Part shown: in pieces, positions 17,903-45,284 of the stretch
Position numbering within the stretch: position 1 is the stretch's first letter
How the letters are laid out: each line of letters begins with the position of its first letter
NCBI GenBank assembly: GCA_002269645.1
Contig: NIVC01004373.1
Coordinates: 1-48,145 of the forward strand
Length of the DNA stretch: 48,145 nucleotides
Direction of reading: 5' to 3'
Source of the DNA: Macrostomum lignano
Lineage: Eukaryota
The notes under the pieces: model-generated
The model's input: only the letters and a program-made list of their open reading frames with translations
Database searches by the model: none
Told to the model about the DNA's origin: nothing
Position numbers and translations under genes: made by a program

Positions 17903-17984
<82 letters not shown>

Positions 17985-18899
17985 CACGGCATGTTAAATT
18001 ATTTAATTGAAAGTAGGCTACCGGTTTCAAGCATCTGGGCTCTTCGTCAGGCCAAAAAATAGAGAGAGAGGGGGGAATGTAGAGAGGAGATAGGGGAGAA
18101 GAGAGAGGGGAGATAGGGAGGGGGGAGTAGGCAGAGAGACGGGAGAAGAGAGGAGACAGGAGAGAGAGGAGAGAGCGGAGAAGAGAGAGGAGAGAGGAAA
18201 GAGGGGAGAGGGGAGAGAGGGGAGAGTAGAGAGAGGGAAGAGAGAGGAGAGAAAGAAGAGAGAAGGGAAAGGGGACTAGGAGAGGAGAGAAGAGAATAGA
18301 CACAAACCTTGAGCGGGTTGGACTGCAATTGTGAAGCTTCAAAGAACCCAAGGGCCGGGCCTCGAGAGAGGCTTCGAGGGCTGAATGTGACACGCGAGTC
18401 GGAGTTTGCCAACCCCTGCTCTATCCAATTATAGGACCACTGCATTTTCCAACCTGAAGTTACCAACCTGTTTAGCCAGATCAACAGTAGGCAGCAACAC
18501 CAGCGCTGCTGGCTTATTCCTTGCACCGCTAGCATTATCGGCAACCAAGTTGGACTGATCAATCCAAGTTTTAGCCACAATAGGCAGCAGGTAAGCCAGT
18601 GACTTGCCACTACCAGTTGGTGCATAGGCCAGTACATTCCTGGACTGCATTAGCACTGGTACGCATTGCATTTGAATCGGTGTGGGCTCCTGATACTGCA
18701 GTCTGACAGTGATATTATGCAACAGTTTAGTTGGCAAGCCAAGGCTGCTAAACATTGAATCGAAATTCTCTTCAGGCTGAGGAATCTCATCGCCAACAAC
18801 GCGAATATAGTGACGCTTGCGCAGGCCTTCAATTGCACTCATACTACTAGTAGTAGCATTAGCAGTAGTAGCCAATTTTGAGTAAGTTTTGTTTTTCAT
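13732..18899 (-). CDS. DDX52: DEAD-box RNA helicase DDX52/ROK1-like, multi-exon gene
   Basis: Exons (>=18899)-18468, 17489-17197, 16626-16457, 15583-15162, 14022-13732 with GT-AG borders and matching phases. Motifs: Q (PTPIQMQ), [43 protein letters not shown], and a basic C-terminal tail. The 5' start is uncertain and an upstream exon is possible. Confidence 0.88.
14079..15140. repeat. Graded 21-bp minisatellite family interrupted by a 266-bp insert
   Basis: Units GATCTTGTGAATCTGATTAGG, GATCTGGATAACCCGATTAGG and GATCCTGATAATCCGATTAGG. Confidence 0.93.
14717..14982. mobile_element. MITE-like insert with G6/C6 ends and internal inverted sub-repeats
   Basis: Starts GGGGGG, ends CCCCCC. TTTCACAAGGTCGAAA copies on the left are mirrored by TCGACCTTGTGAAA on the right. 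CAATTA occurs on both flanks. Confidence 0.5.
15162..15583 (-). CDS. DDX52: DDX52-like helicase C-terminal domain exon
   Basis: [12 protein letters not shown]...[11 protein letters not shown]...[15 protein letters not shown]. Confidence 0.92.
15620..16390. repeat. Degenerate GA-rich minisatellite, intronic
   Basis: Recurring GAGATTAGATAAGA...GCTTGAGATGGAG. Confidence 0.8.
16457..16626 (-). CDS. DDX52: DDX52-like exon with SAT motif
   Basis: [23 protein letters not shown]...[13 protein letters not shown]; acceptor CCCCAG|A, donor G|GTAATC. Confidence 0.88.
16733..17190. repeat. 15-bp minisatellite, intronic
   Basis: Unit CTCTGCACACCCCTA. Confidence 0.95.
17197..17489 (-). CDS. DDX52: DDX52-like exon with DEAD motif
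   Basis: MLVSTPQRL...[13 protein letters not shown]; acceptor GCCAG|GTG, donor AG|GTTTGT. Confidence 0.9.
17594..18418. mobile_element. hAT-like non-autonomous element with GA-rich interior
   Basis: 15-bp inverted repeats AGGGGTTGGCAAACT (17595-17609) and AGTTTGCCAACCCCT (18403-18417). No matching 8-bp TSD seen. Confidence 0.5.
18468..18899 (-). CDS. DDX52: DDX52-like exon with Q motif and Walker A
   Basis: [17 protein letters not shown]...[12 protein letters not shown]...[11 protein letters not shown]; donor CAG|GTTGGT at 18468/18467. Confidence 0.88.
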
Positions 18900-27540: not shown

Positions 27541-30059
27541 TTGAATTGAATTGAATTGACTTAATTGAAGACAATTGATTGCTAGAAATGGATTCATGCT
27601 TTATCAATTTAAGCAAAGGTGCTTAATCCAAACGATTTTTTGGATTGCAGCTGTCTTGCCAGCATTATTCAGGAGTCAAATCATTGGACGGGAGTCCGCA
27701 TGTCAATGAGCATTGTGAAAACTGAGTTGACAATTGAGTCCATTTTTGATACATCATGGCCTTTCTAGCCTTGAATTTGAAACATGATTGGCAAATGGAA
27801 AATGTCAATGAGACTGTTCAAAATTTTTCTGAAGCTCCAAAATCCAAAGCGGGCTACTAATCAATTGATTAAGTCTGGTTAGCATTCTGCCAATATAGAA
27901 CATAAACTCAAATTATCTATGCATCTCCCTGCATGCAAGCATTTGCAGTGAATTAACATTTTATTAGCATTTTTAGGTATTGCTTAAATATCCTATTCAT
28001 TGAATTGAAAGTGAATTGACAATTCAAAATGACCTCTGTCAAGGAAAATTAGGTAAATTTATGGGGGGGGGAATCACTGAAAATCAGGGAAAGTGGTAAA
28101 TGTTTAGGGAATTTATTAGAGATTCAAAAATCACCTATTATCACCTTCCTAGAATTGCCTACCTAGAATTGCCTACCTAGAATTGCTAAAAACCAGGGAA
28201 TTTTCAAATAATCAAAGAATACTATAATATCTAGAATGTGGTCACCCAGATTGTCACAGGTTGGGTTAATTTTATTTTTCATGTGCTACAAGTACTAAAA
28301 TGTGTAGCTAAATTAAGGCCATAAATGTGGCCAAAAGTATAGTGGCTAATATTGGGACACTTTCAGCCACTCCTTGGCCACTTTTGTTTGGCCACCTTTT
28401 GGCCACTTTTTGTTTACAATGTGAGTCATTGACAGCTGTGGCACATCTGGCAATGTGGATATACATCAACAGCATGCCATCAAGTTCTAGATTAGGCGCT
28501 TCAAGGATTCTATTACAACAGCTATCGAGGGACTTGTGGCACAGGTTGCTCTCTAGAAAAGCGCATCAATCAACAATAGGTACGAGCAGCCGCAGGCAGT
28601 CCTCAACAGACTTGGAAAATGATCAATTTGTGGCCTCTGTACATTTGTTTTATTACTTTACCAAGCTTCAGAAAAGAACTGGTAAGAGAAAAAAAGTGAA
28701 TTTTTCAATTATTTTTAATGTTCATAATTGCTGTGACCTTACTTTTGAACTTTATAAACAGATGATAATAAAAGTTTTAAAAAGATGATTTATAAAAAAT
28801 ATAAATTCTATACATACCTAATTCTTCTTGATCTCCATATACTCAACATCCTTTCACATCATAGGCTCCAAGTCTCCAAGGCTGTCAATGCACATCAGTG
28901 CATGACACATGCCTATGTATGCTTAGCAATATGCCTCTCTGATGCAATGCAGCAAGTGGTTAATTGGTCAGGTCACATGGCTGAGCAGTGCAAAAGTGAG
29001 CTGCCAGCCATAGAAGTTATGGATTCAGCGCTAGCTATGCTATGGATATATTTCAAGGTGAGGTAGCAAATCATTCATTCTATGTGGTTTTATAATATGT
29101 GAAAAACAATTCTAAAACATGGTCAATATATGTTTGGAAATAAGGGTATTTTCATTTTATATTCAAATAGGAGATATAGAATGCAGAGTGGACAAAAACC
29201 AAACAAAATTTTATCCTTGGTAAAAAACAGTTAATAGGACTGCTAATGAAAATTTCTTTTCTACCACTGAAAGTAGCAAAAAAACAAAAATTAATTTTCT
29301 GTATAAGTGCTACAAAAAATTATACAACTTCTACCATAGACAGTTGTGCTCATCTACCTGGATGAGAAATCAAGGCCATCAGAACAGGCCATCGAGAAAG
29401 AAATAGCACGCATCCTAAAGCATGCTGCTCAAAGGTGTGCAGCTTGCCAGGAGCAGCTGTCATTTCCAGTCCCTGCTGCTGCTGCTTCTGCTGCTGCTGC
29501 TAAGTTGTTGTGTTTCCCTGTTTTGTACTAAAGCCTTTATTATAAAACACTCATATATGAGTATTTACTTGAATACTTTTAACTCTTGTGCTTTTTGATG
29601 ACATTTTAATTTGGATTAATTTTTTAACTAATTAGTTCAAATTTCAGTTTGCTTGACATTCTTTCTTTAATTATTTTTTTGTTTTAAATGTTCCATTTCA
29701 TTTTCACAATTTTTTTATCTTGCTTGAAAACATTTACAGGAAATTTTTTGCAATTTGCATAATGCTAAGTACAAATATATATGTTGAACTTACAAAAAAA
29801 CAATAATGAAGCAGTAAAATTTGAGCAACAAATAAGCAAATTTAATTCTTTACATTTGAGTATTTAATTTCTTTAAATGTCTACTCATAATAGTATATAT
29901 AGTGCAAACATCTGTCTGTCCTAAAACTGTCCGAAATTTTTGTTTTGTCAGCATCTGCATGACCATATTTGGATGTACATAAGGGGTACTTGTGGACAAG
30001 GATAATTTGTTGTCTGTCAGATGCAACTTTTTACACTAGGAGGCTATTTGCCTCACATT

Positions 30060-30163
30060 AGTAGTATACGTTTTTTTGACACAAAGCCGATTTCCTTATG
30101 GCGAAATACATAGTAAGTACAGGCCCAAAAAAATGGCAGAGTCCGAAATTTCATGTGCACGCA
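30060..30163 (+). repeat. Left terminal inverted repeat
   Basis: The first 84 bp are identical to the reverse complement of the right end; 4 mismatches over 104 bp. Confidence 0.97.
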
Positions 30164-30619
30164 GTCTGAAATTCCATGTGCACGCAGTCTGAAATTCCAA
30201 GTGCACGCTAAATATCTTTTACGCAACGTGATTATTCAGACGAATTGCATATCCACCTGTCCAAAATACAAGTAACCGATTCTAGCAATGGTGACACAAA
30301 CACACTTCAAAGGATTCCATTCAAGACAAATTTACTCCAAAGCTATTCACACATTTCAAGTGTTTTTGAAATATTGAAAACTTGTGAATATTATCACCCT
30401 TTTGAAGAAAGATAGTAAATGATCTATTCTTGAGTGCCTATAGAATTTTTGCACCAACTTGAGCAGATGGTTTACAGATACTATGTCAACAACTGCGTCA
30501 ACATGCTTTTCTTTATACTATATATATATATACGAACACACTGACACAGAAAATATTAAATAACTTAAACCAAGTTTACATTATACTACTTGTTCAACTA
30601 TACTTACATCTTAAGTGAA

Positions 30620-31481
30620 ATGAAGCGATCACGTCAGCAGGAATTGGCCGAGCGCTATGTTAAACAAGGTAAGATAATCACCTACTCTAGTTCAGTTTTC
30701 TTTTTTAGATTGACTGTTCGCTATAGTTTAGTTTCTAGATTGATTGTTAGTTCGGTTTCTGTTTAGACCGATCCTCTGTTTGTTCAGTCTCTAGATTGAT
30801 TTTCTGCTAGTTCGGTTTCTGTTTAGACTAATACTCTGCTAGTTCAGAATTTCTAGATTGATTGTCTGCTAGTTCGGTTTCTGTTTAGACTGATTCTCTG
30901 CTAGTTCAGTTTCTATATACATTGTATACATGCACCTATACCAAATTTCCCTCATCTTATCCATTATTATAGCATTCAAGAATGGTTTCTTCACGCGGCC
31001 ACCTCCAGATCAGTGCAAACGCATTTGCCACGACACCACCACATCCAATTCTGCTGCAAGAGCATCATATTCTACATCTCTCGCCAGAGTAACCTCGATT
31101 CATGTCGAGAGACAGACAACTGAGCTAGATCGCATTTACACAAGAACTGATGTTATTCAGTCAATTAGGCAGCAATCGAACCCACGACCAACTGACCAAC
31201 TGCAGTATGCACCACCACCACCATCACCAACCAGCTACAATGACCCAACAAAGCAAACTTGCAGTAAGCCTACAAGTACCAAACCAACGACAGCAACTGA
31301 AACACCATCATCATCAATTGCTATTTCTACCCAAGTTCAACCGCTGCTAAACTCGCCAATTATTGTACAGAAGGACATCAAGTCTGTAAAAGTCTCTCAA
31401 ATGAGCACAGGCTTCTACCAAGTAGAATTAGCAAAGACCTGTAATACAACTCAAGTATTTGAATATTGGGACCTATCTTAA
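30620..31481 (+). CDS. Maverick ORF1, spliced (30620-30668 + 30973-31481), Ser/Thr/Pro-rich protein of unknown function
   Basis: Exon 1 MKRSRQQELAERYVKQ, donor AAG|GTAAGA, acceptor TTATAG|CA. The phase-1 join is in frame with the 30930 ORF. The intron contains a small tandem repeat. Confidence 0.65.
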
Positions 31482-31734
31482 AAAGACATTTTTTCTAACT
31501 CTTCATAAAATTTTGCCAGCAATGTGTCCAAGTAATTGCTCTTTTAGTATATATCAAACAAGTCTGTAATCAATAATATAATCTCTATAAATTCATTATT
31601 CTAAAAAATTCTTTCAATTTTATTCGCCATTCATTGAAATTATTTAATTCAATATAAAGTCAATATCTTGTACAGTCATCATTAAACAAAAATTATTAAT
31701 CCATGCAAATAATTTTTTTTCATACGTTTCTTTA

Positions 31735-32420
31735 GCCATGGTCTGGCTTTTGCCTCAACAGTATGATTTAGCTGTGGTCCAGCTTTTGCCTCAACAGTAT
31801 GATTTAGCTGTGGTCCAGCTTTTGCCTCAACAGTTTTTAGCCGTGGTCCGGCTTTTTTGCCTCAGCAGTATGATTTAGCTGTGGTCTAGCTTAAAACTGC
31901 ATCAACAGTGATTTAGCTATAGTCCAGGCTTAACTACCTCAACGATGATTTAGCTATAGTCAAGGCTTAACTGTCTCAACAGTAATTTTAGCTGTTGTCC
32001 AGACTTAACTGCCTCAACAGTGATTTTAGCTGTGGTCCAGGCAACTGTCTCAACAGGGATTTAGCTGTAGTCCGATTAGCTTAACTGTCCAGTTATTTAG
32101 CTGTGAGCCAAGCAGCAGCACCCGTCTCAACAGTGAGAATTAGCTATGGTCAGCTTTACCTCAACTGTGATTTGGCTGCTGTGGTCTAGCATAACTGACT
32201 CAACAGTAATTTTAGCTGTAGTCGTCCAGCTTAACCACCCGTCCAGTTTTATAACCATGGTCCAGCTTAACCACCGTCTCAACGTACAGCGATTTAGTCG
32301 TGGTCCAGCTTAACCGTCTCAACGTACAGTGATTTAGCCATGGGTCTAGTAGCAATTAACCGTATCAATAGTGATTTAGCCGTGGTCCAGCTTAACTGTC
32401 TCAACACAGTAATTTAGCTT
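31735..32420. repeat. Degenerate ~33-40-bp tandem array inside the element
   Basis: Core CTCAACAGT..GATTTAGCTGTGGTCCAGCTTAAC. Confidence 0.85.
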
Positions 32421-33129
32421 AGTCCAAACAGCATTTGTGTGTCAACTGCACTGACTGCATGCGGTTATAGCAGCGGCAGTCATTATAGTCCCAACAAGCT
32501 GCGCGTCGCAGCATGATAGTGTAACTCTATATAGCTTCTGCTCAATATAGGACTGCAAAAGCTGAGTTACAACTATACCTTTTTCTGTTTGAAAAGTAAC
32601 ACTCTATATATAGGTTACTCAAGCAATCTCTTGTCACCGTGCGAGCTAAAAAATTCCAACATGCAAGCAAAACTTTCAATAAATTAATTTCATAGCACCG
32701 CGTGCAGCTTATTTTTACTCTAAAATCCAAGATTGCTAATTTTTCAAGTCGCAAAATATTTTAATTACATTCTACTTGAGAACAAAACCAATCTAATGAA
32801 GCAGCAACCAGCAGTCTTCTTATTAAACGCTTGCCATCGTGTTACTCTTGCAAATTTATAACTAGTGTGCCTAAGATTCATTAATTTTATTGTATAAAAT
32901 ATCAACCTACATTTGCGTAAAATTAGACCTAATCATGCAACCCACCCTAGAAACTTATGCCACCTTTGGCACGCAACAATGTCTTAATCAGCACGCAACA
33001 ATTAAATTTGTTTACTAGTTCACAAACAGCATGCAAAGCTTGCTATAAATACAAGACCCGAAATGGTCAATTTTTCATGAGCTCAATCATTACAGCAAAA
33101 GAAATACTATATTCAATTGCTTGTAAGAC

Positions 33130-34328
33130 ATGGCAGCTTGCATCAAGACGGAGTCAATTGTACGCTCCGACTCGAGTCCGATTTTTTACGTTGGAGAGCA
33201 GTCTACAACCACGACTGGTTCGTCCTGCCAGTTTCGATCTATTGCGTGGAAACCATCAATCGAGTGTACAAAATGGTACCCAATTATATTGCAAACCAAG
33301 GCTCCAATGGAGCTTTTTCGTGGAATCGCAGAAAGGCCAGAGCTCGATCATCCGTCTTGCAGACACGACTCTCGCGACGCAGTAAGTGTCCAATTTCATC
33401 CAGACAGCTGCGATAAGGAACTCTTCCACTCTCTCCGGTGAGCACCATATTAAATTTATACAATTAATTTTAGGAAACTATATTCATAATTTATATAATG
33501 TTTTGCAGTCAAGTCGAAAAAGGTCTATCGGTCAAGTTGAACGAGATTCAAGATGCTCGACCCTTGGCACGACTAACAAAACCAGCTCATCAGCATGCTA
33601 ACGACGTCCTCGAGTTTGTGCCTCAACAATGGCTGGCTATAAAGCCTGCTTACCCTTGTGCCACAATCAGGATCAGCAACGATCATCCACACGGGAAGGA
33701 GGTGTCCATTTCCGATTTCAAAGGTGTCAGCGGTACCTACCAAATGACAGTGCAAGCAACGAGCTTGTATTGTCCAAAAGGCTGCCTCGTCTGGCGCATT
33801 ACATTCGCTGTGCGCTCTCTGACACTCATAGAATCTTCCGACAACATGTTGCAGCGCCTCGACATGTTCAAGGGAGTGCTTGCACACCTACCCGCGACCA
33901 AGTCAGCAATTAGAAGCAGGAGTCCGTCCCCAACATCTACCTGTGAGCAAGAAGAAGCAAATGAACAAAGCCTGCAGAATTCAAGCCAGGTGACACCTGC
34001 CAAGTCACCTGCAAAGCGTCGGTCTACCACCACCGTATCGAAGAAGTCGACTACATCGAATGCAGCGCCAGCCTCTATTGAACCGCCGCCTAAAAAGCAA
34101 GTTCGAAAACGCAGCGGTGCAAAACAGCAAAACAATTCTGCCGAAGCTGGTGCAGATGGCACAGACTGGGTGGAGGCTCCACCAGCAAAGATCTTGGTGA
34201 GTACACCTGCCTCTGGAACCAGGGTAGCGTCCAAGGAGACAGCATTTTTAAAGCGTGCTGCTGCGGACGCTACTACAGCTAGCGTGTCTTCATCGGACGA
34301 CTCGTACAGCAGCTCTGATGATGAGTAA
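33130..34328 (+). CDS. Spliced ORF (33130-33437 + 33509-34328, 375 aa), putative OB-fold ssDNA-binding protein with acidic tail
   Basis: 71-nt AT-rich intron CG|GTGAGC...TTTTGCAG|T joins the two tracked ORFs in frame. Motifs PIILQTKAPM, ELFHSLRQVE and WRITFAVRSL resemble T7 gp2.5-like/NCLDV SSBs; tail SDDSYSSSDDE. The function is inferred. Confidence 0.6.
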
Positions 34329-34538
34329 CAAAATTTTTGACTAATTTTATCCAAGTTTTAACTAACTTATTCCACTATATTTATCAAATTTTTGGCTAGG
34401 GAAATATTATTTTTTAGGGAAAAGCTCAAAACATTTTTTGCTACTCCTTGTACGCTAACCAGGTTTTGTAATTTAATATTAGAATTTACGATAGTATAGT
34501 CATGTTTAACTTTTCTTATTATTTATTTTCCGTTTTAG

Positions 34539-35096
34539 CGACTTGTCCTATTAATAGTTACTGCGAGTCTGAAGCTGCACCCGTTTGAAAAATTTGATTT
34601 AAAGCAGACCAAACAGAAGCTACAGACCAGAAACCGGTTTTGCAAACTATTCCTAAGCCGACCAACAATGCTAAAGACAATTTATTCAAATGCTAAAATC
34701 CAACTTTATCCAGCAGGAAAACTAACTATATATGGCTGTAAATCAAATTCTCAGATAGTCTCAGTTTTACGATTTATCAACGACACTATTAATTGTGTAG
34801 ATTTTGATTCAGTAAAAATTCAGAGCAGTACCTATGTCGGCTTTATTGGTCATCTTTGGCCAAAATTCGGTTTCTCTAGTCTAAAAAGATATGCAGGCTA
34901 CTATTCGAATTATCTGGTTGGATACGATGCAGAAAATTTCCCACAAGCAGTTTCTGTTAGATCAGCATCAAAACCAAGGCTTTTTTGTAACATATTTTTT
35001 TCGAAAAAGTTTGTTATTATGGGCGTTCAAAACACTCATGAATTGAATAATATTCTTAACCATGTCAAGGATTTTTTAATCTCTGTTAATAACTAA
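34539..35096 (+). CDS. TATA-binding protein (TBP)-fold protein; coding exon opens at a splice acceptor upstream of the tracked ATG (34668)
   Basis: FDLK, NRFCK, QLYPAGKLTIYGCKS, VKIQS, YDAENFPQ and KPRLFCNIFFSKKFVIMG align by eye with both TBP core repeats (LDLK, KRFAA, LIFSSGKMVCTGAKS, FKIQN, YEPELFPG, KPRIVLLIFVSGKVVLTG). Confidence 0.82.
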   Translation, partial: RLVLLIVTASLKLHPFEKFDLKQTKQKLQTRNRFCKLFLSRPTMLKTIYSNAKIQLYPAGKLTIYGCKSNSQIVSVLRFINDTINCVDFDSVKIQSSTYVGFIGHLWPKFGFSSLKRYAGYYSNYLVGYDAENFPQAVSVRSASKPRLFCNIFFSKKFVIMGVQNTHELNNILNHVKDFLISVNN

Positions 35097-35319
35097 ACTT
35101 AACAAGTAAACAATTGCTGTCAAATCGCAGTTGCGATGCATTCTTTTACAAACATTTTGTCTTTTTTTATTTATTTACCAATTGTTTTCTCTAATAGTAA
35201 ACGTGTCAGCTATACCTATAACTAACCAAATCATCATTTTTCTTACAGCCGCAAATGACAAACCGGATCATCTATTAATATTATGCTCGATACGCTCGTT
35301 GTCGAGCTAGGTGCACACA

Positions 35320-36033
35320 ATGCCGCGTGCACAATGCCAAATCTGCAGAAAAAAGTTCAGTAATCAAGCCGAGCTGCATGCTCACTCGCATGGTGCTTGT
35401 TTTTCACCGCAACGATTACTGACCGGATCGCTGCAAAACCTGATCGAAAACCCACCAGATGGGTGGTCCATCGCTTTGCGCGAGTCAGCTCATCGTGGTC
35501 GGGTAAATTTTGTCGAATTTACTCCCACTCTTGAACAACAAGGCAACAGCTCTGGCGAGTTACTTCCTGGCGAGTTGATTGCGTCTTTAAGAGAACCAAT
35601 ATTTAAAATATTGGAAAAAATTGGCTCACCCAGTTTATTAATAAGAGTCTGCTTTCACTTGAAAGTGACACTATTTCGACCGAAAACAGCAGCAGACGAC
35701 AACGATGGCTCGAGCAGCGAAGAGATCATTTCGGTCTATTTTAATACCAACATTGCGACAATATCATTTGATGAGACGATTGCAAACAGTGACATGCTGT
35801 TATCTCCCGAGGCCTACAATGACTGGTTCGCACGCGTTATTAATCAGTTGTTAATAAAAATTGACAATTTTCAATCTCGAGGTAGTAATTGGCAATATAG
35901 AGCAATCGAGCAGCTAGACTTGATGCTCTGCGTTTATCGCAAAAGCCATGCAAGCACACTGTCAACAAATACGTCCCACGGTGGTGTGGGGGCGGGCGGC
36001 GGCAGTGGTGGTGGTGGCGGCGGTGGTGGTGGT

Positions 36034-36065
<32 letters not shown>

Positions 36066-36396
36066 GCGCGGGGAGTCCGGTCCAGTCCGGTCCGGTCCAG
36101 TCCGGTCCGGTCTGGTTAAGCAGCAATCGTTTAAAGTTCCAGTCTCAATCGGTCGCAAAGCTGGAGCAGTACTGCTTCTAAAGCCGCACAGAGCAGTTTA
36201 AAGCATCAAGACTATTTAAGAGTCTTACACAAGCGACAACTTGTGTTTTCGCGCATACAGTCCATTCGTTCTCGAAAACAGAAAGTTTTTTTTGATGCAA
36301 CAAAGAAAACTTGCACTAAGCTTCTTCGATACGAAGCGATCCTGGACAAGTTCAATTAATTCGCTACCCTTTGGACACTGGCACTTGGCTAATTAA
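35320..36396 (+). pseudogene. Truncated protein-primed DNA polymerase B: C2H2 finger plus N-terminal (terminal-protein-like) region, poly-Gly insertion, broken CF motif; no exonuclease or polymerase domain
   Basis: CQIC-X12-HAHSH; IDNFQSRGSNWQYRAIEQLDL and FKVPVSIGRKAGAVLL resemble the Polinton pPolB N-terminal F..EGSGW and LP....KKAVIN motifs. Stops at 36199 and 36217 precede SDNLCFRAY. Confidence 0.6.
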
Positions 36397-36688
36397 TTAA
36401 CAATATGCTCTGATCTCTTTTGTTGTACAAAGTAATAGCATGCTATAGAAGACTGTAACCCATCATTAATTTTTTCATTGATCATTATTTACAATAAATA
36501 AATGATACCGGCATTCGTTTAAATTATAATTTTAGCACTTTTTTGTGTTTAATTATTTGAAAAAGTATATTTTTTATAGTTAGATTCTCAAGACTAAGCT
36601 TGTGTTTGTAGTAGACGTAAATGTAGTGCTATCGTTCATGTTTCAAGAAAAAAAACTTTTTTTTAAACTTTCAGCTACAAGAATCGAC

Positions 36689-37171
36689 ATGAATCCCGAG
36701 CAGCAGCAGCAACAACAACTAACTGATCGTAAGCTTTTAGTTGAACGTCTATACGATTCGGCAACGATTCCGACCCGAAAAACTGTCGGGTCGATCGGGT
36801 ATGATCTTTGCGCTGGCGTCGATGGTACCATTCCGGCCTACGAGTCCCGGAGTGTGCGAACCGGACTCAAAATTCGCTTACCGCCTGGTACCTATGGCAG
36901 GATAGCGGGACGTTCCAGCATGGCTCTGCACAGCTTATTTGTTGGCGGTGGCGTAATCGACCCCGACTATACTGGTGAAATCTGTATAGTCTTGTTTAAT
37001 TACAGTCCGGAAGACTTTGAGTACTATGCCGGGCTCAGTATTGCACAACTGGTTCTGGAGCAGGCCGTGCTTGCTTCAGTCTATGTGACTGAAGCAGACA
37101 ATTCGATTCGGATGATTGAGCCGCCGACCAAGCGGCGCGGCTTTGGCGGCTTTGGCAGCACTGGCCAATAA
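36689..37171 (+). CDS. dut: dUTPase (trimeric type)
   Basis: All five motifs present: GSIGYDL, GRSS, GVIDPDYTGEI, IAQLV, RGFGGFGSTG. Likely ATG at 36689. Confidence 0.95.
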   Translation: MNPEQQQQQQLTDRKLLVERLYDSATIPTRKTVGSIGYDLCAGVDGTIPAYESRSVRTGLKIRLPPGTYGRIAGRSSMALHSLFVGGGVIDPDYTGEICIVLFNYSPEDFEYYAGLSIAQLVLEQAVLASVYVTEADNSIRMIEPPTKRRGFGGFGSTGQ

Positions 37172-37241
37172 GTATAATAATAATAATAAACTGATTTTTT
37201 TCTTTGGTGATTGGTGCACTATGCGAGAGCTTTGTAAATAC

Positions 37242-37250
37242 TATAAGCAA
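37242..37250 (+). promoter_or_regulatory. Candidate late-promoter TATAAGCAA (first of 8 TATAAG sites upstream of virion-module genes)
   Basis: Other copies at 38405, 39448, 39843, 40679, 42064, 42416 and 43753, each 21-158 nt upstream of an ATG. Confidence 0.55.
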
Positions 37251-37262
37251 TTTTAAAAATTT

Positions 37263-37706
37263 ATGCCTAAAATATATGTTGTAAAAATGTCTCCAGCGAA
37301 AGATCGAGGTTTTAAAAAGAAAAAGAAGAGCATTCGTAAAAAGAAGAAATCTATTAGAAAGATTAATAAAAAGCAACAAGGTTATGGTGTCGTAAATTGG
37401 TTAATTAATCATTTACCATTTGAAGCACATTTACCCGGCGGATATCAGTTTTGTGGTCCAGGTACGCAACTGCAAGCTAGGCTAGCAAAAGGACAACGAG
37501 GAATTAATCGGCTTGACAATTTGTGCATGCTTCACGACGTGGCCTATGATAAAAATTCTGACGTGCAAGAGAGGTTAAAAGCTGATAAGCTATTAGAATC
37601 TGGTGCACGAGAGATTGCCCACGATCCGTCTACTGGTTGGAAAGAAAAACTAGCTGCGAAGTTGGTTACCAAGGTTATGCAAGTTAAGCAACGCTTTGGT
37701 GCTTGA
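37263..37706 (+). CDS. Virion protein with basic N-terminus and parvovirus-VP1-like phospholipase A2 domain
   Basis: HLPGGYQFCGPGT (calcium loop), GINRLDNLCMLHDVAYD (HD dyad). Confidence 0.9.
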   Translation: MPKIYVVKMSPAKDRGFKKKKKSIRKKKKSIRKINKKQQGYGVVNWLINHLPFEAHLPGGYQFCGPGTQLQARLAKGQRGINRLDNLCMLHDVAYDKNSDVQERLKADKLLESGAREIAHDPSTGWKEKLAAKLVTKVMQVKQRFGA

Positions 37707-37708
37707 AA

Positions 37709-38398
37709 ATGCAGCAGCCATACAATATGCAACTAGCTCACGATTCTACATTTATTATTGCTGGACCTTCAAACTCGGGTAAAACTGAATGGACGTTGCG
37801 TTTGTTGACTGAACGAAAAGAATTATTTGATAAAAAACCGTGCCGTCTTGTTTGGTGCCATGGATCAAGTTTGAAACCAGACGATCAACAACGAATTAGA
37901 ACATGCTGGCAAAAAAGCGGTCTTGACCCTATTGTTTTTGTACCCGAATTCACACCACAGATGATTAATCGTTTTTTACCACACGATTTGGTTGTTGTTG
38001 ACGACTTGCAAAGCGAGATTGCTAAGTTGCCAGAATTTACTAGTATGTTTACAAAGCATGCGCATCATATCCCTTTGACTTGTCTGTACCTTTGTCAAGG
38101 TCTTTTTAACAAGTCTGATCCAGAAGCACGCATGCGAAGTTTATCAGCTAGTTATATTTGTCTAACTCGTAGTGTGCGCGATCGAACCACAGTTGAACAT
38201 CTCGGTCGACAAATGTATCCGCGTAATAGTAGGTTTCTAGTGAATGTGTATGAAGACGCAACAAATAACAAACCTTTTTCATATTTATTCATTGACCTGC
38301 GGCAAGTGACACCAGATTTTTTACGATTGAGAACAGGAATATTTTCTGGTGATGAACAAGTTGTCTATACTCGTGAATGTGATGCAAAGTTTGTGTAA
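37709..38398 (+). CDS. A32/FtsK-like DNA packaging ATPase
   Basis: Walker A AGPSNSGKT, Walker B VVVDDL, FTKHAHH, YLFIDL; typical Maverick ATPase. Confidence 0.95.
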   Translation: MQQPYNMQLAHDSTFIIAGPSNSGKTEWTLRLLTERKELFDKKPCRLVWCHGSSLKPDDQQRIRTCWQKSGLDPIVFVPEFTPQMINRFLPHDLVVVDDLQSEIAKLPEFTSMFTKHAHHIPLTCLYLCQGLFNKSDPEARMRSLSASYICLTRSVRDRTTVEHLGRQMYPRNSRFLVNVYEDATNNKPFSYLFIDLRQVTPDFLRLRTGIFSGDEQVVYTRECDAKFV

Positions 38399-38455
38399 TA
38401 TTATTATAAGCAAATTATAAACTGTTGTCAATATTAGTTTGTGTTTTATTTCAAA

Positions 38456-39445
38456 ATGAGTTTTTACGTTTTTTTGCCGTCAAACGATATCAGTTACGAA
38501 ACCAACTCGCCTAATGAATTTCGAGTGCGACTAACTGAACCAATAAATTTATTGAACGGATTCTTCGAGGTTGCACTAGTTGAATTACTGTGCCATGGAG
38601 CAATTACGACGCCAAATGCTCATCGTGAGCGTCGATTTGAAGTTCCATATTTTGCGGACATTGACTCAATAATACGATTAAAGAAAAACTATTGGGGTCG
38701 TGTTTGGGCAGAGGCAGACTTGGATGCTTACGTTTCCTGGCAACCGTCTGGTACAGATGAAAAATTTGCCTGGCTTTTACGAAATTCAGGCGAAAAAACT
38801 ATTGGATTAGAACTACCAGTTACATTTATGGACGCTTTCAAATTTGACTCTTGGAAGAAACTTTCTGGACTTGTCTCGGAAAAATTATCAAAACCTGCCG
38901 CTGGTAGTGTACAACCACCGGATGGTTCATACTTGGATTTGATAAAAAGTCTCGACAATACTCTAGCGCTAGTACCTGAGAACTATTATGTTTTTTATTG
39001 TGTTCTATCGCCTGGTGAAGCTATACGACTTGTTTCGCATGGAGACTATCTTCGAAAAACGGAAGGAGAAGTGTACATCAAAGTACACCAATATTGGTTG
39101 AGAAATCGTGTTTGGCGCATTAACAAAACCTACTTGGATGCTGTGCTACCTTCTCCGATGCCTAGTAAAACGGTTTACATGTACTGTTACACAGATATAA
39201 TCGAGTATCAAGCAGTGGGAAGTACATCAGTACCGTTGCTTCGAGTTGTGGAACTCCAACAAAAGAAAAACGGAGAACTTATACGCGATAGCAGTGCATT
39301 GCAAACACCCTACTACTTGAAAACAAATCGACAACAAATTCACGAGATTTCGATTCGACTATCGGACCAGCGCGGAAAACCGTTTAATTTTGATCCGGGA
39401 GCACACGTTGTTGTCGTACTGCATTTTAAACATAGGTCGGACTAA
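38456..39445 (+). CDS. Minor capsid protein (penton, PX)
   Basis: FYVFLPSN...NEFRVRL...FEVALVEL at the N-terminus; YCYTDIIEYQAVG...VPLLRVV and EISIRLSDQRGKPF...VVLHFK at the C-terminus. Confidence 0.9.
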   Translation: MSFYVFLPSNDISYETNSPNEFRVRLTEPINLLNGFFEVALVELLCHGAITTPNAHRERRFEVPYFADIDSIIRLKKNYWGRVWAEADLDAYVSWQPSGTDEKFAWLLRNSGEKTIGLELPVTFMDAFKFDSWKKLSGLVSEKLSKPAAGSVQPPDGSYLDLIKSLDNTLALVPENYYVFYCVLSPGEAIRLVSHGDYLRKTEGEVYIKVHQYWLRNRVWRINKTYLDAVLPSPMPSKTVYMYCYTDIIEYQAVGSTSVPLLRVVELQQKKNGELIRDSSALQTPYYLKTNRQQIHEISIRLSDQRGKPFNFDPGAHVVVVLHFKHRSD

Positions 39446-39501
39446 TTTATAAGCAAAGATTAATTGTGTAATAGAAAATTTTGTGAATTTGTTTTGTAAG
39501 A

Positions 39502-39930
39502 ATGAGCGAACTAACAGAAAAAGGAAAACAAAATGCTCGCTCATTGTGTCAGTGTGCTTTTTTACTACAAATTGTTTATCGGCTAAAGCATCCAAAGCAG
39601 AGAAAAAGTTTTTTACAAACACTTTCAGAGTCGGAGATACGATGTCTAGTAGACTTTCTGTTTAATATTATTAGTGGACGTATTAAAATTAGTAACTGTA
39701 ACAAAAGACGACTTGAGAAGCATCGCAGATATATACGCCAGCTTTTGGAACAGAAGACTCCAATTACTGCAAAAAGGAAAATACTTGTCCAACACGGAGG
39801 ATTTTTACCTTTTTTGGCTCCAATTATTGCCGCTCTACCTGCTATAAGCACTGCGCTTGGGATAACGTCTGGAGTAGTTGGTACCGCCGCGGGAGCAGCG
39901 AATTTAATACGATCAATTCAACGAAAGTAG
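39502..39930 (+). CDS. Small basic core protein with an adenovirus pX-like GGFLPFLAPIIAALP tail
   Basis: Basic N-terminal half, then GG followed by a hydrophobic helix similar to adenoviral pX (GGILPLLIPLIAAAI). Confidence 0.75.
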   Translation: MSELTEKGKQNARSLCQCAFLLQIVYRLKHPKQRKSFLQTLSESEIRCLVDFLFNIISGRIKISNCNKRRLEKHRRYIRQLLEQKTPITAKRKILVQHGGFLPFLAPIIAALPAISTALGITSGVVGTAAGAANLIRSIQRK

Positions 39931-39940
39931 TAGGAATATA

Positions 39941-40630
39941 ATGCGAACTAACGAGAGTAGTAGTTTTCAACGAATGTATCTAGTACCTGAATCTGTGTAT
40001 CAATCTGCATGTCAAGGTGCAGAGCAAGGATCGTCACCAACTGCTGAGACACCTCGAAAAACTGAAGTTTTAGACGCACCGCAAGATGCTCTGGCAAAAA
40101 ATATGGTGGAAATGAGAGACCAAATGGATAACTTGGACAAGGAAATGGAAAAGGAGCCAAATTACACAGCTCAATTGAAACGAAGCAGATTGGAAGACAA
40201 ACTTTTAAAATTGCGCAAAGTCTATCGCACTGGAGACGAGGACAATCTGTCACTTGTTCGCAAAGGGACTACTGTAAGAAGTTCATATGCCAGCGAATCA
40301 AGGGAAATTCCTAAAGTTTTTTTACCACGTTTCGAAGCTCTCGCTCAAAACCTATTTTCGGACATGGACAAGAATGCAGAACCAATGCTGGCTAATTTGA
40401 CTGATGCCGAGATACAAGATCTCATGGAATATGTTGTTCGAGACAGACCGCTTAAGCGACACGAGACTCAACCGCCTAGTGGACTAAAAACATTTTTAGA
40501 CTTTCTTCGAAAACGTGGAATCGCAGCAAACCAAATCGGGCGTCATGTACGAAACGAGCTAATGTCTGCTCCAAAAACTGTTGCAAAGGAGGATCTTAGT
40601 CTGTTTGAAAATTATCAAACACTGAATTAA
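39941..40630 (+). CDS. Maverick hypothetical protein (RMYLVP N-terminal motif)
   Basis: 229-aa open frame in the gene cassette; MYLVP resembles the KMxLVP start of conserved uncharacterised Maverick ORFs. Confidence 0.75.
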   Translation: MRTNESSSFQRMYLVPESVYQSACQGAEQGSSPTAETPRKTEVLDAPQDALAKNMVEMRDQMDNLDKEMEKEPNYTAQLKRSRLEDKLLKLRKVYRTGDEDNLSLVRKGTTVRSSYASESREIPKVFLPRFEALAQNLFSDMDKNAEPMLANLTDAEIQDLMEYVVRDRPLKRHETQPPSGLKTFLDFLRKRGIAANQIGRHVRNELMSAPKTVAKEDLSLFENYQTLN

Positions 40631-40742
40631 GTTGTTTTAAAATTACAGATTACGTTTTAACAAAATTGATTCGAGCACTATAAGCTTTTTAAAAAGGTTA
40701 ATTTTTTGTTTATGAAAAATATATAGTTTAATAAGACAAACC

Positions 40743-40931
40743 ATGTCATCTATCTTCCAAAAACTTTTGATTCGTCTCTGTGAGTTTTTTTGCATAAAAT
40801 CTGAATGTGTGCCGTTTCTGGGAAAGGAGCACAACGAGGATACTGACGGAGATTCGATCGAGGCTTCGTTCTTTTGTTGCAACTGTCAAACGACTAGCAT
40901 CAATCTAACTGATGATGAAGCGAGTGCGTAA
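40743..40931 (+). CDS. Small Cys-rich protein overlapping the integrase start
   Basis: 62 aa, CEFFC and FFCCNC, good ATG context, preceded by TATAAG. Confidence 0.5.
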   Translation: MSSIFQKLLIRLCEFFCIKSECVPFLGKEHNEDTDGDSIEASFFCCNCQTTSINLTDDEASA

Positions 40932-42072
40932 GGAAATTGAAGAATTTTTGACGGATGCTTTTTTTAACTTGAACAGGCCTACTTCATTTAGTGGTAACAA
41001 GACTATACTTGTTCGTGAAGTACGTAAAAAGTTTCCACAGATTACGAACAAAGTTGCAAAGCGCGAAGTTGATAATTGGGTGCGATCAACAAATGAGCAT
41101 CATTTATTTCGAAAAACACGACGAAACTTTCCAACTCCAAAAATTAGTGTGCCACCAGTTGCAAAGTTTCAGTTTCAAATCGATTTGGCAGATTTACCTC
41201 AATACAAGACGGAAAATCGAGGTTATCGTTACATACTTGTTCTTATCGACTGTTTTACTAGAGTTGTACGACTAAGACCATTGCGTACAAAGAAGCCTTC
41301 AGAAGTTAGTCAAGTATTACTAGAGATTTTTCGAAGTGGTTTTAAGCCTGTTTATTTACAAGGTGATGCTGGTATGGAGTTTCTCGGAAGAGCTACACGT
41401 CAAATGCTGAAACAGGAAGGAGTTCGATTTTTTGTTAGCCAAAGCAATTACAAGGCAAGCATGGCTGAACGATTTATCCGCTCGTTAAAGGAACGTCTAT
41501 TACGATACTTTCGAGCAAAAAATTTACCTCGATGGTTTGACATTTTACCGCAATTGGAAGATAATTTCAACTCTAGTCCTCATCGATCCTTGAGTGGAGA
41601 AACACCAAAACGGGTAGAGACAGACCCGCATTTACAAGGAATTTTGTGGGACAAAATGTTTGCGAAGTCGTACACTAAAAAGAATGAGAATAAATTTAAA
41701 GTTGGTGATTGGGTTAGAATTACACGACGTCGAGGAACATTTGAAAAAGGATACACTACGACTTGGAGTAATTCAAAATATCGCATTCATCGTGTACACT
41801 TGACAGACCCGCCAATGTACGAATTAGTGGACCCTGAAGATGGATTTGAAGTGCTGAAAGGAAGGTTTAACCAAGCGGAACTAATGTTGGTAAACGAGAC
41901 AGATGAAACACCTAATGAAATTGAAAAAGTTATTGAAACTGATCGAGCGAAAAATGGAAGTCGTCTGTATCTAGTAAAATGGAAAGGTATGCCAATCTCA
42001 AGAAGTCAGTGGTTAAACGAAAATGATCTTGACGCAAAGACTGCTAAACTATTTTCTAAAGTGTATAAGTAA
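40912..42072 (+). CDS. Retroviral-like (rve) DDE integrase with C-terminal chromodomain
   Basis: QIDLADL, LQGDAGMEF, SMAERFIRSLK; chromodomain EIEKVI...YLVKWKG...SQWL. Confidence 0.97.
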   Translation: MMKRVRKEIEEFLTDAFFNLNRPTSFSGNKTILVREVRKKFPQITNKVAKREVDNWVRSTNEHHLFRKTRRNFPTPKISVPPVAKFQFQIDLADLPQYKTENRGYRYILVLIDCFTRVVRLRPLRTKKPSEVSQVLLEIFRSGFKPVYLQGDAGMEFLGRATRQMLKQEGVRFFVSQSNYKASMAERFIRSLKERLLRYFRAKNLPRWFDILPQLEDNFNSSPHRSLSGETPKRVETDPHLQGILWDKMFAKSYTKKNENKFKVGDWVRITRRRGTFEKGYTTTWSNSKYRIHRVHLTDPPMYELVDPEDGFEVLKGRFNQAELMLVNETDETPNEIEKVIETDRAKNGSRLYLVKWKGMPISRSQWLNENDLDAKTAKLFSKVYK

Positions 42073-42113
42073 CACATGAATTGGGATTGCATGACGAAGA
42101 GAAGACTGTTGAA

Positions 42114-42572
42114 ATGGATCCTATTTTTGCTTTTTATTCTGGTCCGAATAGATCTGCTGAAGGTGGAGGTGGATATGGCATTCCTGTTTACGAAGGTTAC
42201 GGTTTTTTGTCAAATTTGGCGGACAGATTGGTGTATCCTGTACTACGCAACGCAAAGAAAGATTTCTTGGATCGTGGTCTGGAGTATTTGAAAAGTGCGA
42301 CAGCAAAAATTGGTATGGGTCGGAAGCGTCACTTGGACACAGAATCGAGCGAAGAGATGTTTAATACAACTGCAGTTTCGAGACCAAAGCGAAGGAAAAG
42401 AACCAGTGGAGTGGCTATAAGCTTAGGAAAGAAGAAACGGCAAAAGAAACGACGAACAAGACAGTGTGGAAAGGGACGCGTGAACAAAAGAAAACGCAAG
42501 AAGACCGGTGGTATAGGAAAACGTCGAACTGCTACTGCAAGCAAGAAACTTTTTAGTCTGTTTGAAAAGTAG
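42114..42572 (+). CDS. PZ-like virion protein with Lys/Arg-rich tail
   Basis: GGGGYGIPVYEGYGFLSNLADRLVYPVLR resembles the Maverick PZ G-x-G/amphipathic motif; basic C-terminus. ATG at 42114. Confidence 0.7.
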   Translation: MDPIFAFYSGPNRSAEGGGGYGIPVYEGYGFLSNLADRLVYPVLRNAKKDFLDRGLEYLKSATAKIGMGRKRHLDTESSEEMFNTTAVSRPKRRKRTSGVAISLGKKKRQKKRRTRQCGKGRVNKRKRKKTGGIGKRRTATASKKLFSLFEK

Positions 42573-42573
42573 C

Positions 42574-43896
42574 ATGAACCATTTGCTTGGACCTGATATT
42601 GCTGCTCTTAAAAGTGAATTGTCGCTATTTGATCAAAGTCCTGTTCAGTTTAGTGTTTTGGATAATCGATATACTAACATTCAACCGCAACATGGTATTA
42701 CAAAAGGATCACCTATCGAATTTGAAGTTGTGCCTGCAGGCGATTTGTATTTGGATCTACAAGAAACTGTGCTCACGGTATGCTTCAGCGTTAGTGATAG
42801 TGAAGGTGAACCTATAGATGCAACGAAAAATTTTGTTTGTTTGAATAATTTGGTTATTGGAACATTGTTTGAGGACGTTCAATTTACTATTGGCGATACT
42901 GTAGTTGAAGGTGGTAGTTTTATGTATCCATACAAGGCTATGCTTCTTACATTACTGGAATATGGACATACAGCTCAGAAGGCTGGTTTACTGCCGTGGG
43001 GGTTTTACAAGGATACAGCTGGTAAAATGAATGCAACAAGTGAAAACGATGGACGAACAAAGAGGCAGGCGCTCATTGCTAACAATAGGCGGTGCACTGT
43101 ATCGGGGCCGTTATTCTTGGATTTGTTTCGTCAGCCTCGGTATCTACTATCAAAGACACCACTACGGATCAAGCTCATACCGGCAAAAAGTAAATTTGTC
43201 CTGAGCGGGTCAACATTAGAAGCTGGTGCGGTTTTAAAAGACTATGAGATCAAGTTTTTGCGTGCAGAACTACGATTGCGGTTTGTTCAACCCTCGCCGA
43301 GTGTTATCAGTGCACATGCTCATGGACTTAAAAGTCACAATGCATTATATCCGCACCGAAGTCTAAGCCTTGGTACGTTTACTATACCCCGAGGATCGTC
43401 TAGCCATACGCATGAAAATTTGTTTCCTAGTGGGGTACCACGGCTTTTATTGATGGCAATCGTAAGCAACAAGGCATTCAATGGAAGCATGGACACAAAT
43501 CCGTTCAACTTTGAGCATGCAAATGTGAGCAGCATTGGTGTGTTTGTGAATGGAGACTCGGTACCATCGCGTCCGCTGCAGACAAACTTTGGAGATGATT
43601 GTGTGACAGAGTATAATTTTTTGCTACAACAGCTTGGAATCTATCTACAGGGACGAGATATTGGATTTAATATGCTGGATTACGCCAATGGTTACTCAAT
43701 TTTTGCATTCAGTCTTGGAAGTGAACCTGGTGTCGGACGGGGAGTGCAACTGTATAAGGAAGGAAATGTAAAACTAGAGTTACGCTTCAATGCTGCAACT
43801 AGTACCGTGTACAACGTCATATTTGGAGGTATATTTGACAAGCAACTGCAACTGACTGAACTTCGCGACATTGTTCCTGGCACAGTATGGAAGTAA
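42574..43896 (+). CDS. Major capsid protein (double jelly-roll, PY/hexon)
   Basis: KSELSLF, PIEFEV, LYLDLQET, YPYKA, GFYKDTAG, DLFRQPRYL, AFNGSMDTNPFNF, GNVKLELRF. Confidence 0.96.
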   Translation: MNHLLGPDIAALKSELSLFDQSPVQFSVLDNRYTNIQPQHGITKGSPIEFEVVPAGDLYLDLQETVLTVCFSVSDSEGEPIDATKNFVCLNNLVIGTLFEDVQFTIGDTVVEGGSFMYPYKAMLLTLLEYGHTAQKAGLLPWGFYKDTAGKMNATSENDGRTKRQALIANNRRCTVSGPLFLDLFRQPRYLLSKTPLRIKLIPAKSKFVLSGSTLEAGAVLKDYEIKFLRAELRLRFVQPSPSVISAHAHGLKSHNALYPHRSLSLGTFTIPRGSSSHTHENLFPSGVPRLLLMAIVSNKAFNGSMDTNPFNFEHANVSSIGVFVNGDSVPSRPLQTNFGDDCVTEYNFLLQQLGIYLQGRDIGFNMLDYANGYSIFAFSLGSEPGVGRGVQLYKEGNVKLELRFNAATSTVYNVIFGGIFDKQLQLTELRDIVPGTVWK

Positions 43897-44450
43897 TTGA
43901 TTCTATCCTAGATCGTGGTGTAACAGATCGCTTCCTTCGCAATGTTGTATCGAAATTGTGCGCACATTTTTTAAATGTTGTATTTCTTGGTGTTTTTCCT
44001 CAAAACTTTGTTGGTGGACTTAGACGCTTACCTTTAGACGGTAAAGACTATTTTTTTATCGTTAATACTGACGTCTCCAACCTGCCCGGAAAACATTGGG
44101 TATGCGTTTGGGTTTATGGTCATCGAGCAGGTCGCGGTAGCAAACGACTTGGTGAATATTTTGATTCTCTTGGTCTAGTACCATTGCCAAGAATAGCAAA
44201 ATGGCTAGGAAAAGAATGTGGAAATTCGAAAAATTGGTGTTATAGTCGCTTTGCTATCCAAGACCCACAGAGTGGAAGTTGTGGATTTTGGGTAATTTTT
44301 TATATTTTTCATAAGTTGACTACCAGAGGAAACCTAGAGTGTTTTATTCGAAGCGTTTTTAAACGGAATATAATTCGCACTGGTTCGTTTCGATACTTGT
44401 ATGCTAAATTACGCAATTTTGTTTTACGAGTGCTGCCTCAATATTTGTAA
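43887..44450 (+). CDS. Adenain-like cysteine protease
   Basis: IVNTD...GKHWVC (His), EYFDSLG (Asp), IQDPQSGSCG (Gln/Cys). Confidence 0.95.
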   Translation: MEVIDSILDRGVTDRFLRNVVSKLCAHFLNVVFLGVFPQNFVGGLRRLPLDGKDYFFIVNTDVSNLPGKHWVCVWVYGHRAGRGSKRLGEYFDSLGLVPLPRIAKWLGKECGNSKNWCYSRFAIQDPQSGSCGFWVIFYIFHKLTTRGNLECFIRSVFKRNIIRTGSFRYLYAKLRNFVLRVLPQYL

Positions 44451-44684
44451 ACTCGCTAATTTGTGCGTCAAATTGTGTTTGTATCTAGTTGAAATATACA
44501 ATACTGCTTGAAAAGAAGAATTTAAATGCGTTAAGTTATACGCAAAATAAGCTTTGTGTCAAATTGAATTTTGGTTGGGCTTGTAATTAGCTGCATTCAT
44601 TGCGGATAGAATTTAGGTGGATAGACAGGTGTTTGCGTAAAAGTGATTCAGCTAATTGGTTAATTCATTGCGTAAAAGCTAGTT

Positions 44685-44788
44685 TGCGTGCACGGCAAAT
44701 TTCAGACTCTGCCATTTTTTTGGGCCTGTACTTACTATGTATTTCGCCATAAGGAAATCGGCTTTGTGTCAAAAAAACGTATACTACT
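44685..44788 (-). repeat. Right terminal inverted repeat
   Basis: Ends ...CGTATACTACT, followed by the TSD CACATT. Confidence 0.97.
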
Positions 44789-45284
44789 CACATTCACATT
44801 TACCTATTAGGTTTTATAAAATTGACTAACTTTGCTCCATAAGTTTGCTCTATATGAACTAATTGACTTCAAACTTGACACAACTTTTTATAGCTTTATT
44901 CTTTGTCTAAATATGGTCTTAACTCTGTAACTCAAACAGAACAGAAATTCTAAGCTTATGAAGTTTGTAATTTTTTCTGTTGTTTACTGCTTTCACTTAT
45001 TCCTACAAACTAAGGGCCAGGCAATAGGGCTCAGTCTTCATAGCAAATGTACAATGTTATGGAATAAATTTATTTTTATAGCCTTCTCTGCACCTTCACA
45101 TATGGAGAGGCTATATTCAGCCATGATAATTTAGTGAGAAATTCAAAACACTGTGCTCTATATAGGCAAACTCTGCAGCAATTAAACAGTAGATGGCAAA
45201 TCAAGGCAATGCAAAATACAATGCTATTAAATTGGTCACACCATGGAACTTTTAACATTAAATTTCACTTAAAAGTTTTTTAAA

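Follow-up and report, generated by a model that had tools for sequence, protein, structure and literature searches.

Does a transposable element with viral genes carry both a promoter signal of its own and the protein that reads it? This question is raised by a Maverick/Polinton at positions 30060-44788 of a 48,145-nucleotide contig of Macrostomum lignano (NIVC01004373.1, assembly GCA_002269645.1; this whole stretch is the window, whose positions are used throughout, on the plus strand unless a minus sign is given). Most genes of its virion module are preceded by the non-canonical word TATAAG, and its left arm contains an exon for a protein similar to the TATA-binding protein (TBP). An earlier note on this DNA had proposed that the element's TBP reads TATAAG and switches on a late capsid programme. 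The follow-up described here gives this proposal a probability of roughly two in three, in the following form: TATAAG(CA), that is TATAAGCA, would be a core promoter in the TATA position, read preferentially by the element's TBP as the switch of a second, probably late, wave of transcription. The existence of the box is confirmed, and its role as a core promoter is very likely.

The element has the features by which Mavericks/Polintons are defined, at least in the part of PMC8097293 that gives the definition, namely (AGT)2 ends and a target duplication of 6 bp. Its terminal inverted repeats (104 nt, 96% identity) begin with AGTAGT and occupy 30060..30163 and, recognised as the inverted-repeat match, 44685..44788 (-); the duplication, CACATT, lies at 30054..30059 on the left and 44789-44794 on the right, and the integrase is of the retroviral type (PF00665).

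TATAAG occurs on the plus strand at the eight positions given in the earlier note (37242, 38405, 39448, 39843, 40679, 42064, 42416 and 43753), all of them in the right arm and within 160 nt upstream of a start codon. The distances to the next start could be reproduced (21, or 45 to the second ATG, then 51, 54, 98, 64, 50, 158 and 134 nt), as could the longer words, TATAAGC at six sites and TATAAGCAA at three. The left arm is free of the word and has canonical boxes at 33044 and 30519, as had been claimed; with 0 occurrences against 1.4-2.1 expected in 30060-37171, this depletion alone is not significant. One minus-strand TATAAG, at 39283, was absent from the earlier note. When positional enrichment was calculated, as that note had suggested, TATAAG ranked first of 2885 hexamers (p 3e-6, approximately 0.01 after correction). 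The simple count in 37172-44450, eight where Markov orders 1-3 predict 1.7-1.9 (p 4-7e-4) and order 0 predicts 4.3 (p 0.07), is modest evidence only, since the word ranks 9th, 4th or 1st by count among the tested hexamers. Moreover, four of the eight sites fall inside coding sequence, and 2.1 such sites are expected from the amino acids and codon usage alone (synonymous shuffling); for this reason the window by itself is not decisive, and a chance or coding artefact has to be weighed by means of related elements.

Lineage A is made up of the window's family and four further families in the same genome, whose major capsid proteins (MCPs) are 67-81% identical to that of the window and whose fourfold sites agree at 0.23-0.35 (10 pairs), that is, they are saturated. 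Near-copies (C84, C2529, C3758, C114, C529, C416, C1395, C522 and C2246) were excluded from the statistics, and additional copies of lineages A and B were inspected only, outside them. In the four other families TATAAG is found 35-170 nt upstream of the start in 6/7, 6/6, 7/9 and 6/6 module sites (25/28), with p values of 2e-5 to 1e-4 each. By gene, TATA[AT]G is present in all five families upstream of the PLA2-domain gene (TATAAGCA at 37242..37249, 45 nt before the ATG at 37287), of the putative minor capsid or penton gene (TATAAGCA at 38405..38412), of the pX-like gene (TATAAGCA at 39448..39455), of the small Cys-rich open reading frame (ORF) and the integrase (TATAAGCT at 40679..40686) and of the putative MCP gene (TATAAGCT at 42416..42423), and in four of the five upstream of the PZ-like gene (TATAAGTA at 42064..42071, at the end of the integrase). 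Two of these sites deserve attention because of where they lie. The MCP box is located within PZ and is retained as T-ATA-AGC in all five families, in the middle of a K/R-rich stretch that is otherwise unalignable; the minor capsid box is, depending on the family, either intergenic or embedded in one of two different frames of the ATPase end. Across 34 lineage-A sites the preferred word is TATAAGCA, with C at position 7 in 27 and A at position 8 in 27, and the base preceding the box is other than A in 33. These six window sites are well supported because they are conserved in families that have diverged so far. For them an origin by chance or coding constraint is largely refuted by position, by conservation in four other families, by the changing frames of the minor capsid box and by the intergenic sites, so that as a general explanation it is hardly tenable.

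Such an explanation does suit the two remaining sites, which are poorly conserved. TATAAGCA at 39843..39850, within pX and upstream of the ORF at 39941, is shared by one family of the five, and TATAAGGA at 43753..43760, within the capsid gene and upstream of the protease, by three, where it coincides with an invariant Y-K (P of about 0.25 each); both are compatible with chance and, judging from the sequence comparison, probably are not promoters. The idea of a private TATA-like box paired with the element's TBP loses two of its eight sites and has strong support from conservation, spacing and the lineage comparison given below. By family, a box precedes the ATPase in 1/5, the 229-residue ORF in 1/5 and the protease in 3/5.

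Is this box in the position of a TATA element, or is it an initiator? The late initiator of baculoviruses is (A/G/T)TAAG, and the earlier note had offered an initiator of this kind as an alternative; the TAAG core could then be used by the RNA polymerase of a helper virus, and it is indeed common to the boxes of lineages A and B. The spacing points elsewhere. The start follows the box by 41-165 nt in lineage A, by 39-149 in lineage B and by 28-166 in lineage D, usually by 41-60, and among the 34 lineage-A sites the shortest distance to the conserved start is 41 nt. Directly behind the box, ATGs in other frames are tolerated (in the window, at offsets 12 and 27 of the PZ box): 21 are found in 1408 nt at offsets 6-27 against 14 in 2639 nt at offsets of 34 or more, a 2.8-fold higher density (p 0.004, with sites that are partly orthologous). 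A transcription start some 30 nt downstream of the box would lead one to expect this pattern. No initiator-like peak was seen at +28 to +33. In addition, the 5' flank of the box (TA or CT) is fixed by lineage, the layout recurs in lineage D with no TAAG, and the elements are spliced, which points to host RNA polymerase II. No four-subunit viral RNA polymerase was found in the element, and a genome search for LEF-8, run without a positive control, found nothing. Spacing, tolerated upstream ATGs and the TAAG-less lineage D together favour the TATA position, and a baculovirus-type initiator is very improbable.

An indication of who reads the box comes from other Polintons in the same genome, the words being TATAAGCA in lineage A, CTTAAGAA in B and TATAAATA in D. 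Lineage B encodes a TBP (PF00352, E 1e-23) that is 20-22% identical to that of the window, and its box is CTTAAGAA, with [CT]TTAAGA at the proper spacing in 7/8 and 7/7 cases; lineage D has TATAAATA in 6/6 and 5/6. Cross-use is close to nil: TATAAGC precedes 0/35 genes of B and D, CTTAAG 0/61 of A and D, and TATAAATA 0/64 of A and B. An unbiased ranking of hexamers puts each lineage's own word first, and the enrichment is significant individually in each of the nine elements tested. The left-arm genes of A, B and D have mostly canonical TATAWAWR. Mavericks with and without the TBP gene were also compared, as had been proposed: in lineage C, where no TBP match was found in six frames (2/2 elements), no word is enriched at the box distance (one element tested, best p 5e-4). 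One word placed before non-homologous promoters, and changing between lineages that share a host, argues for a reader encoded by the element.

That reader could be a lineage-specific factor other than the TBP, such as the small Cys-rich ORF, the PW-like ORF or the zinc finger of the protein-primed DNA polymerase (pPolB). These genes also differ by lineage, and covariation over three lineages cannot single out one of them. The TATA-like word, the non-A base before it and the spacing all suit a TBP rather than another factor, and both the small ORF and the PW-like gene sit inside the module that they would have to activate, which makes this explanation quite improbable.

The TBP-like exon of the window (34539..35096, 185 codons; PF00352, E 2.3e-7) encodes a complete two-lobed TBP fold (AlphaFold2 pLDDT 95, Foldseek E 1.5e-9). 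Against cellular TBP structures the model scores Z 15-16.5, with a best match of Z 16.5 and a root-mean-square deviation of 2.4 over 164 residues, at approximately 20% identity. The protein is under purifying selection, with dN/dS ratios from unsaturated pairs of 0.15 in A, 0.17-0.22 in B and 0.06 in D, and the TBP tree separates the three lineages, with deep branches that are unresolved or long. When lineage-A proteins are aligned to host TBP, the C-terminal lobe keeps F190, P191, F207 and V213 and, ahead of F190, the acidic D-x-E stirrup (with K in the middle position in one family). TBP's C-terminal lobe reads the 5' half of the box. The N-terminal lobe, which we take to face the G6-C7 half, has Q at the position of yeast L114 and T at that of V122 in 6/6 proteins. 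Position 122 is T in A and S in B, whose boxes have G6, and I in D, whose box has A6. The four intercalating phenylalanines typical of the TBP family are not all present in lineage A: F190 and F207 are kept, F116 is replaced by Y, and F99 has no aromatic counterpart.

The first ATG of the exon (34668) falls within the first lobe. In 6/6 lineage-A elements a phase-0 acceptor lies ahead of the TBP's first strand, and the upstream gene has, likewise in 6/6, a donor of phase 0 whose position is constant (34197..34202 in the window, within exon 2); from this pair an alternatively spliced fusion of the two is predicted. The upstream gene (33130..34328, two exons, intron at approximately 33438-33508) likely codes for a single-stranded DNA (ssDNA)-binding protein: the atlas neighbours of its domain are the DUF2738/DUF5871 families of nucleocytoplasmic large DNA viruses (scores 0.92-0.94, family share 10-15%), which we take to be ssDNA-binding proteins. 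Its first intron is seen as a GT-AG joint, 33436>33508, in contigs of three of four runs. A joint onto the TBP exon is not among the contig joints listed from the four runs, a silence that carries no weight. The upstream gene has a canonical TATAWAWR box, a putative early promoter, at 33044..33051, 86 nt before exon 1, with matching boxes in C889, C4619 and C1680. In lineage D the order of genes is similar to this arrangement. A different partner is found in C297 (L010:6439-7821, -), where the TBP exon and a deoxynucleoside kinase (PF01712) form one continuous reading frame; a kinase ORF that overlaps an extended TBP frame is found in C889 and C2529.

Taken together, these elements suggest the following sequence of events. 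Host TBP would start the left-arm gene at its canonical TATA box, and alternative splicing would yield a TBP fused behind the putative ssDNA-binding domain. This protein would use the polar Q (L114) and T (V122) of its first lobe to bind the box, whose G6 and C7 are off-consensus; it would likely recruit host TFIIB by means of the retained acidic stirrup, with a start about 30 nt downstream, and host RNA polymerase II would then turn on the capsid, core and integrase genes as the second, probably late, wave. No TFIIB-family match was found among the ORFs scanned.

The main competitor of this scheme accepts a true promoter in the TATA position and assigns its reading to host TBP/TFIID, or to a host paralogue together with another activator, the element's TBP being otherwise employed (in competition with host TBP or in replication). 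The genome also encodes a TBP paralogue, presumably of the TBPL1/TRF2 type. Wild-type TBP has been crystallised, according to the PDB titles, on the single variants G(-26) (1qn5) and C(-25) (1qn3), and G at position 6 is accommodated by cavities, as described in part of PMC1636458; since host TBP tolerates G6 or C7 singly, it may read the box weakly. These structures are among several observations that weigh against the element's TBP as the reader. The missing aromatic at F99 makes the match between residues and bases imperfect, and L205 is N in all lineage-A proteins even though position 2 of the box is canonical. The box of lineage D is fully canonical and identical to the left-arm box of the window, and the TBP-like ORF of this lineage is very divergent, with a profile match of 97%, no Pfam match and an AlphaFold2 pLDDT of 44 (that model was discarded as unusable); two of the four phenylalanines seem to be missing from it. 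The covariation of TBP and box amounts to three lineages and therefore to three points, and the pooled p values are inflated, since orthologous sites are not independent. The ATPase and the PW-like ORF have no box, and the protease often lacks one too. A deficit of TATAAG outside promoters falls short of significance (5 against 10.2 expected, p 0.06), and it is uninformative in any case, because TAAG is depleted in all three lineages. Evidence from transcripts consists of assembled contigs of four runs presumed to be RNA, and in part of PMC7221094 the use of host TFIIB is argued to be unlikely for most viral TBPs. Reading by host TBP would, for its part, leave unexplained that non-homologous promoters of one lineage have a common non-consensus 8-mer, different from that of other lineages in the same host, and that the box is absent from the TBP-less lineage; for these reasons it is considered unlikely.

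How does a box read by the element's TBP compare with known systems? The earlier note had invoked the late system of herpesviruses (KSHV ORF24, EBV BcRF1 and HCMV UL87), a comparison that stands as an analogy and falls as homology or membership. Common to both are a protein with the TBP fold, a polar DNA face, structural genes preceded by a TATA-like box that is off-consensus, and the lack of a viral RNA polymerase; ORF24 is polar at the positions of L114, V122 and V161 (PMC12529657, Table 1). The differences are substantial. The herpesvirus box is TATT and that of the Polinton is TATAAGCA; ORF24 is a multi-domain protein of 752 residues, whereas the Polinton has a TBP core of 185 with the predicted N-terminal fusion, and no protein of the ORF24 type, with a polymerase II-binding N-terminus, was found in the element. 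The Polinton TBP keeps the acidic TFIIB stirrup, whereas the model of ORF24 is incompatible with TFIIB (a section heading of PMC12529657). No family of accessory viral pre-initiation factors was recognised among 16 ORFs and the small ORF, several of which have no assigned family. By analogy, then, the Polinton system is one that would work like the herpesvirus viral TBP system without being a member of it.

Two further comparisons help to place the box. Virophages and polinton-like viruses (mavirus, PgVV) also have a shared motif before the genes of a small virus. Their promoter motifs are read by the giant helper virus, whereas in the Polinton, with its spliced genes, the candidate reader is encoded by the element. 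Cellular TBP bound to TATA variants (1qn5, 1qn3 and yeast TBPm3) shares the fold, and a few substitutions on its concave face can shift box specificity (part of PMC1636458); the Polinton proteins differ in that they are natural paralogues, each accompanied by a different box.

With the Mavericks/Polintons and adintoviruses described before (parts of PMC8502044, bioRxiv 697771, PMC8097293 and PMC10748475) the element shares AGTAGT termini, a duplication of 6 bp, the integrase and the PLA2 domain, together with a truncated pPolB and genes labelled as ATPase, protease and capsid. In the adintovirus paper one figure legend has the label "TBP", and among the listed papers that name both, only this paper and its preprint were found to link Polintons and TBP. 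The word "promoter" is absent from the main texts of PMC8502044 and PMC10748475, as are TBP and TATA from those of PMC8097293 and PMC10748475; a look-up of terms in PMC8097293, PMC10748475, PMC11296320 and two 2026 preprints gave neither a promoter box nor a TBP. No publication on the pairing of a Polinton TBP with a box was found in the main texts searched.

A wider proposal can be put forward tentatively, at somewhat less than even odds: co-resident Polinton lineages may each run an orthogonal one-gene switch, consisting of a minimal TBP with altered specificity residues and its own box (TATAAGCA, CTTAAGAA or TATAAATA). In lineage A the TBP would be spliced behind a replication ssDNA-binding domain, which would tie capsid transcription to replicating genomes and insulate it from host TBP and rival elements. 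In lineage B a CTTAAGAA box also stands 74-77 nt upstream of the gene for the TBP itself, which suggests positive autoregulation. A defined box with a candidate reader provides a direct handle on the timing of Polinton capsid expression and on a possible viral life cycle. If the pairing is true, the TBP-box pairs that diverged within one genome form a natural test set for changes of TBP specificity, and they would show that viral TBP mimicry has also arisen, much reduced in size, beyond herpesviruses and large DNA viruses.

The remaining genes of the element complete its map. After the TBP exon comes an N-terminal remnant of pPolB (35320..36201), the only part of this gene held by the window copy; related elements have longer ORFs, one of them matching PF03175. 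The gene is truncated at approximately 36195, where contigs of three of the four runs diverge. Many near-identical copies have a short distance between TBP and MCP (approximately 8.0 against 11.2 kb), which indicates that a polymerase-less subfamily has expanded, and the family expansion is recent, with 22 of 83 same-genome matches to the TBP exon identical across all 185 residues. The pattern of boxes suggests how such copies retain a complete expression programme. A dUTPase (36638..37171, PF00692) precedes the right arm, whose ORFs are intact and conserved: the PLA2-domain gene (37263..37706, PF08398), the packaging ATPase (37709..38398, labelled from its Walker A motif and position), the minor capsid gene (38456..39445, labelled from the earlier note and position, without a Pfam match), the pX-like core protein gene (39502..39930, PF05829), the 229-residue ORF (39941..40630, PW-like by position, with homologues in all lineage-A families), the integrase with chromodomain (40909..42072, PF00665 and PF00385), the PZ-like basic core-protein gene (42114..42572, labelled by position), the putative MCP gene (42574..43896, labelled by position and motifs, no Pfam match) and an adenain-like protease (43887..44450), whose match to PF00770 is weak (E 0.038). 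A genome search with PF00770, also without a positive control, found nothing. The small Cys-rich ORF (40743-40913) lies directly upstream of the integrase, a position kept in lineages A and D, and belongs to no Pfam family. In the left arm, 30666-30971 and 31730-32440 contain a second GT-AG intron, present in contigs of all four runs, and a degenerate array of short repeats.

Beyond this genome no relative with usable DNA was found: a TBP word search gave 0 matches and viral contigs gave 0 loci with the MCP or its alignment; metagenomes yielded three short loci (1.2-2.8 kb), and close A-type TBPs are present in Logan (P0003, P0004), without gene context or host.

Several observations concern the other elements of the genome. 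Lineage D (C261, C976, C2246; L020-L037) is about 10 kb long and capsid-coding, with long inverted repeats and no pPolB seen, and is a large family, with 90 matches to its TBP-like ORF. Lineage B (C114, C754, C393; L038-L049) encodes a PC4-family protein (PF02229). AT-rich Polinton-like elements (C506 and C3469, L056-L063; C860, L106) have no TBP match in the two that were tested, C506 and C3469; these and lineage C show A-rich runs directly before the ATG, as do viruses transcribed by a cytoplasmic helper. Two further elements (C491, C566; L067-L074), approximately 10 kb in size, have inverted repeats some 900 nt long; they match the pPolB family and gave no capsid or TBP match to the references used. 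Outside the Polinton, the window contains host exons similar to a DEAD-box helicase between simple-repeat introns (15150-18899, -) and a fragment of another host gene (1753-2520, -).

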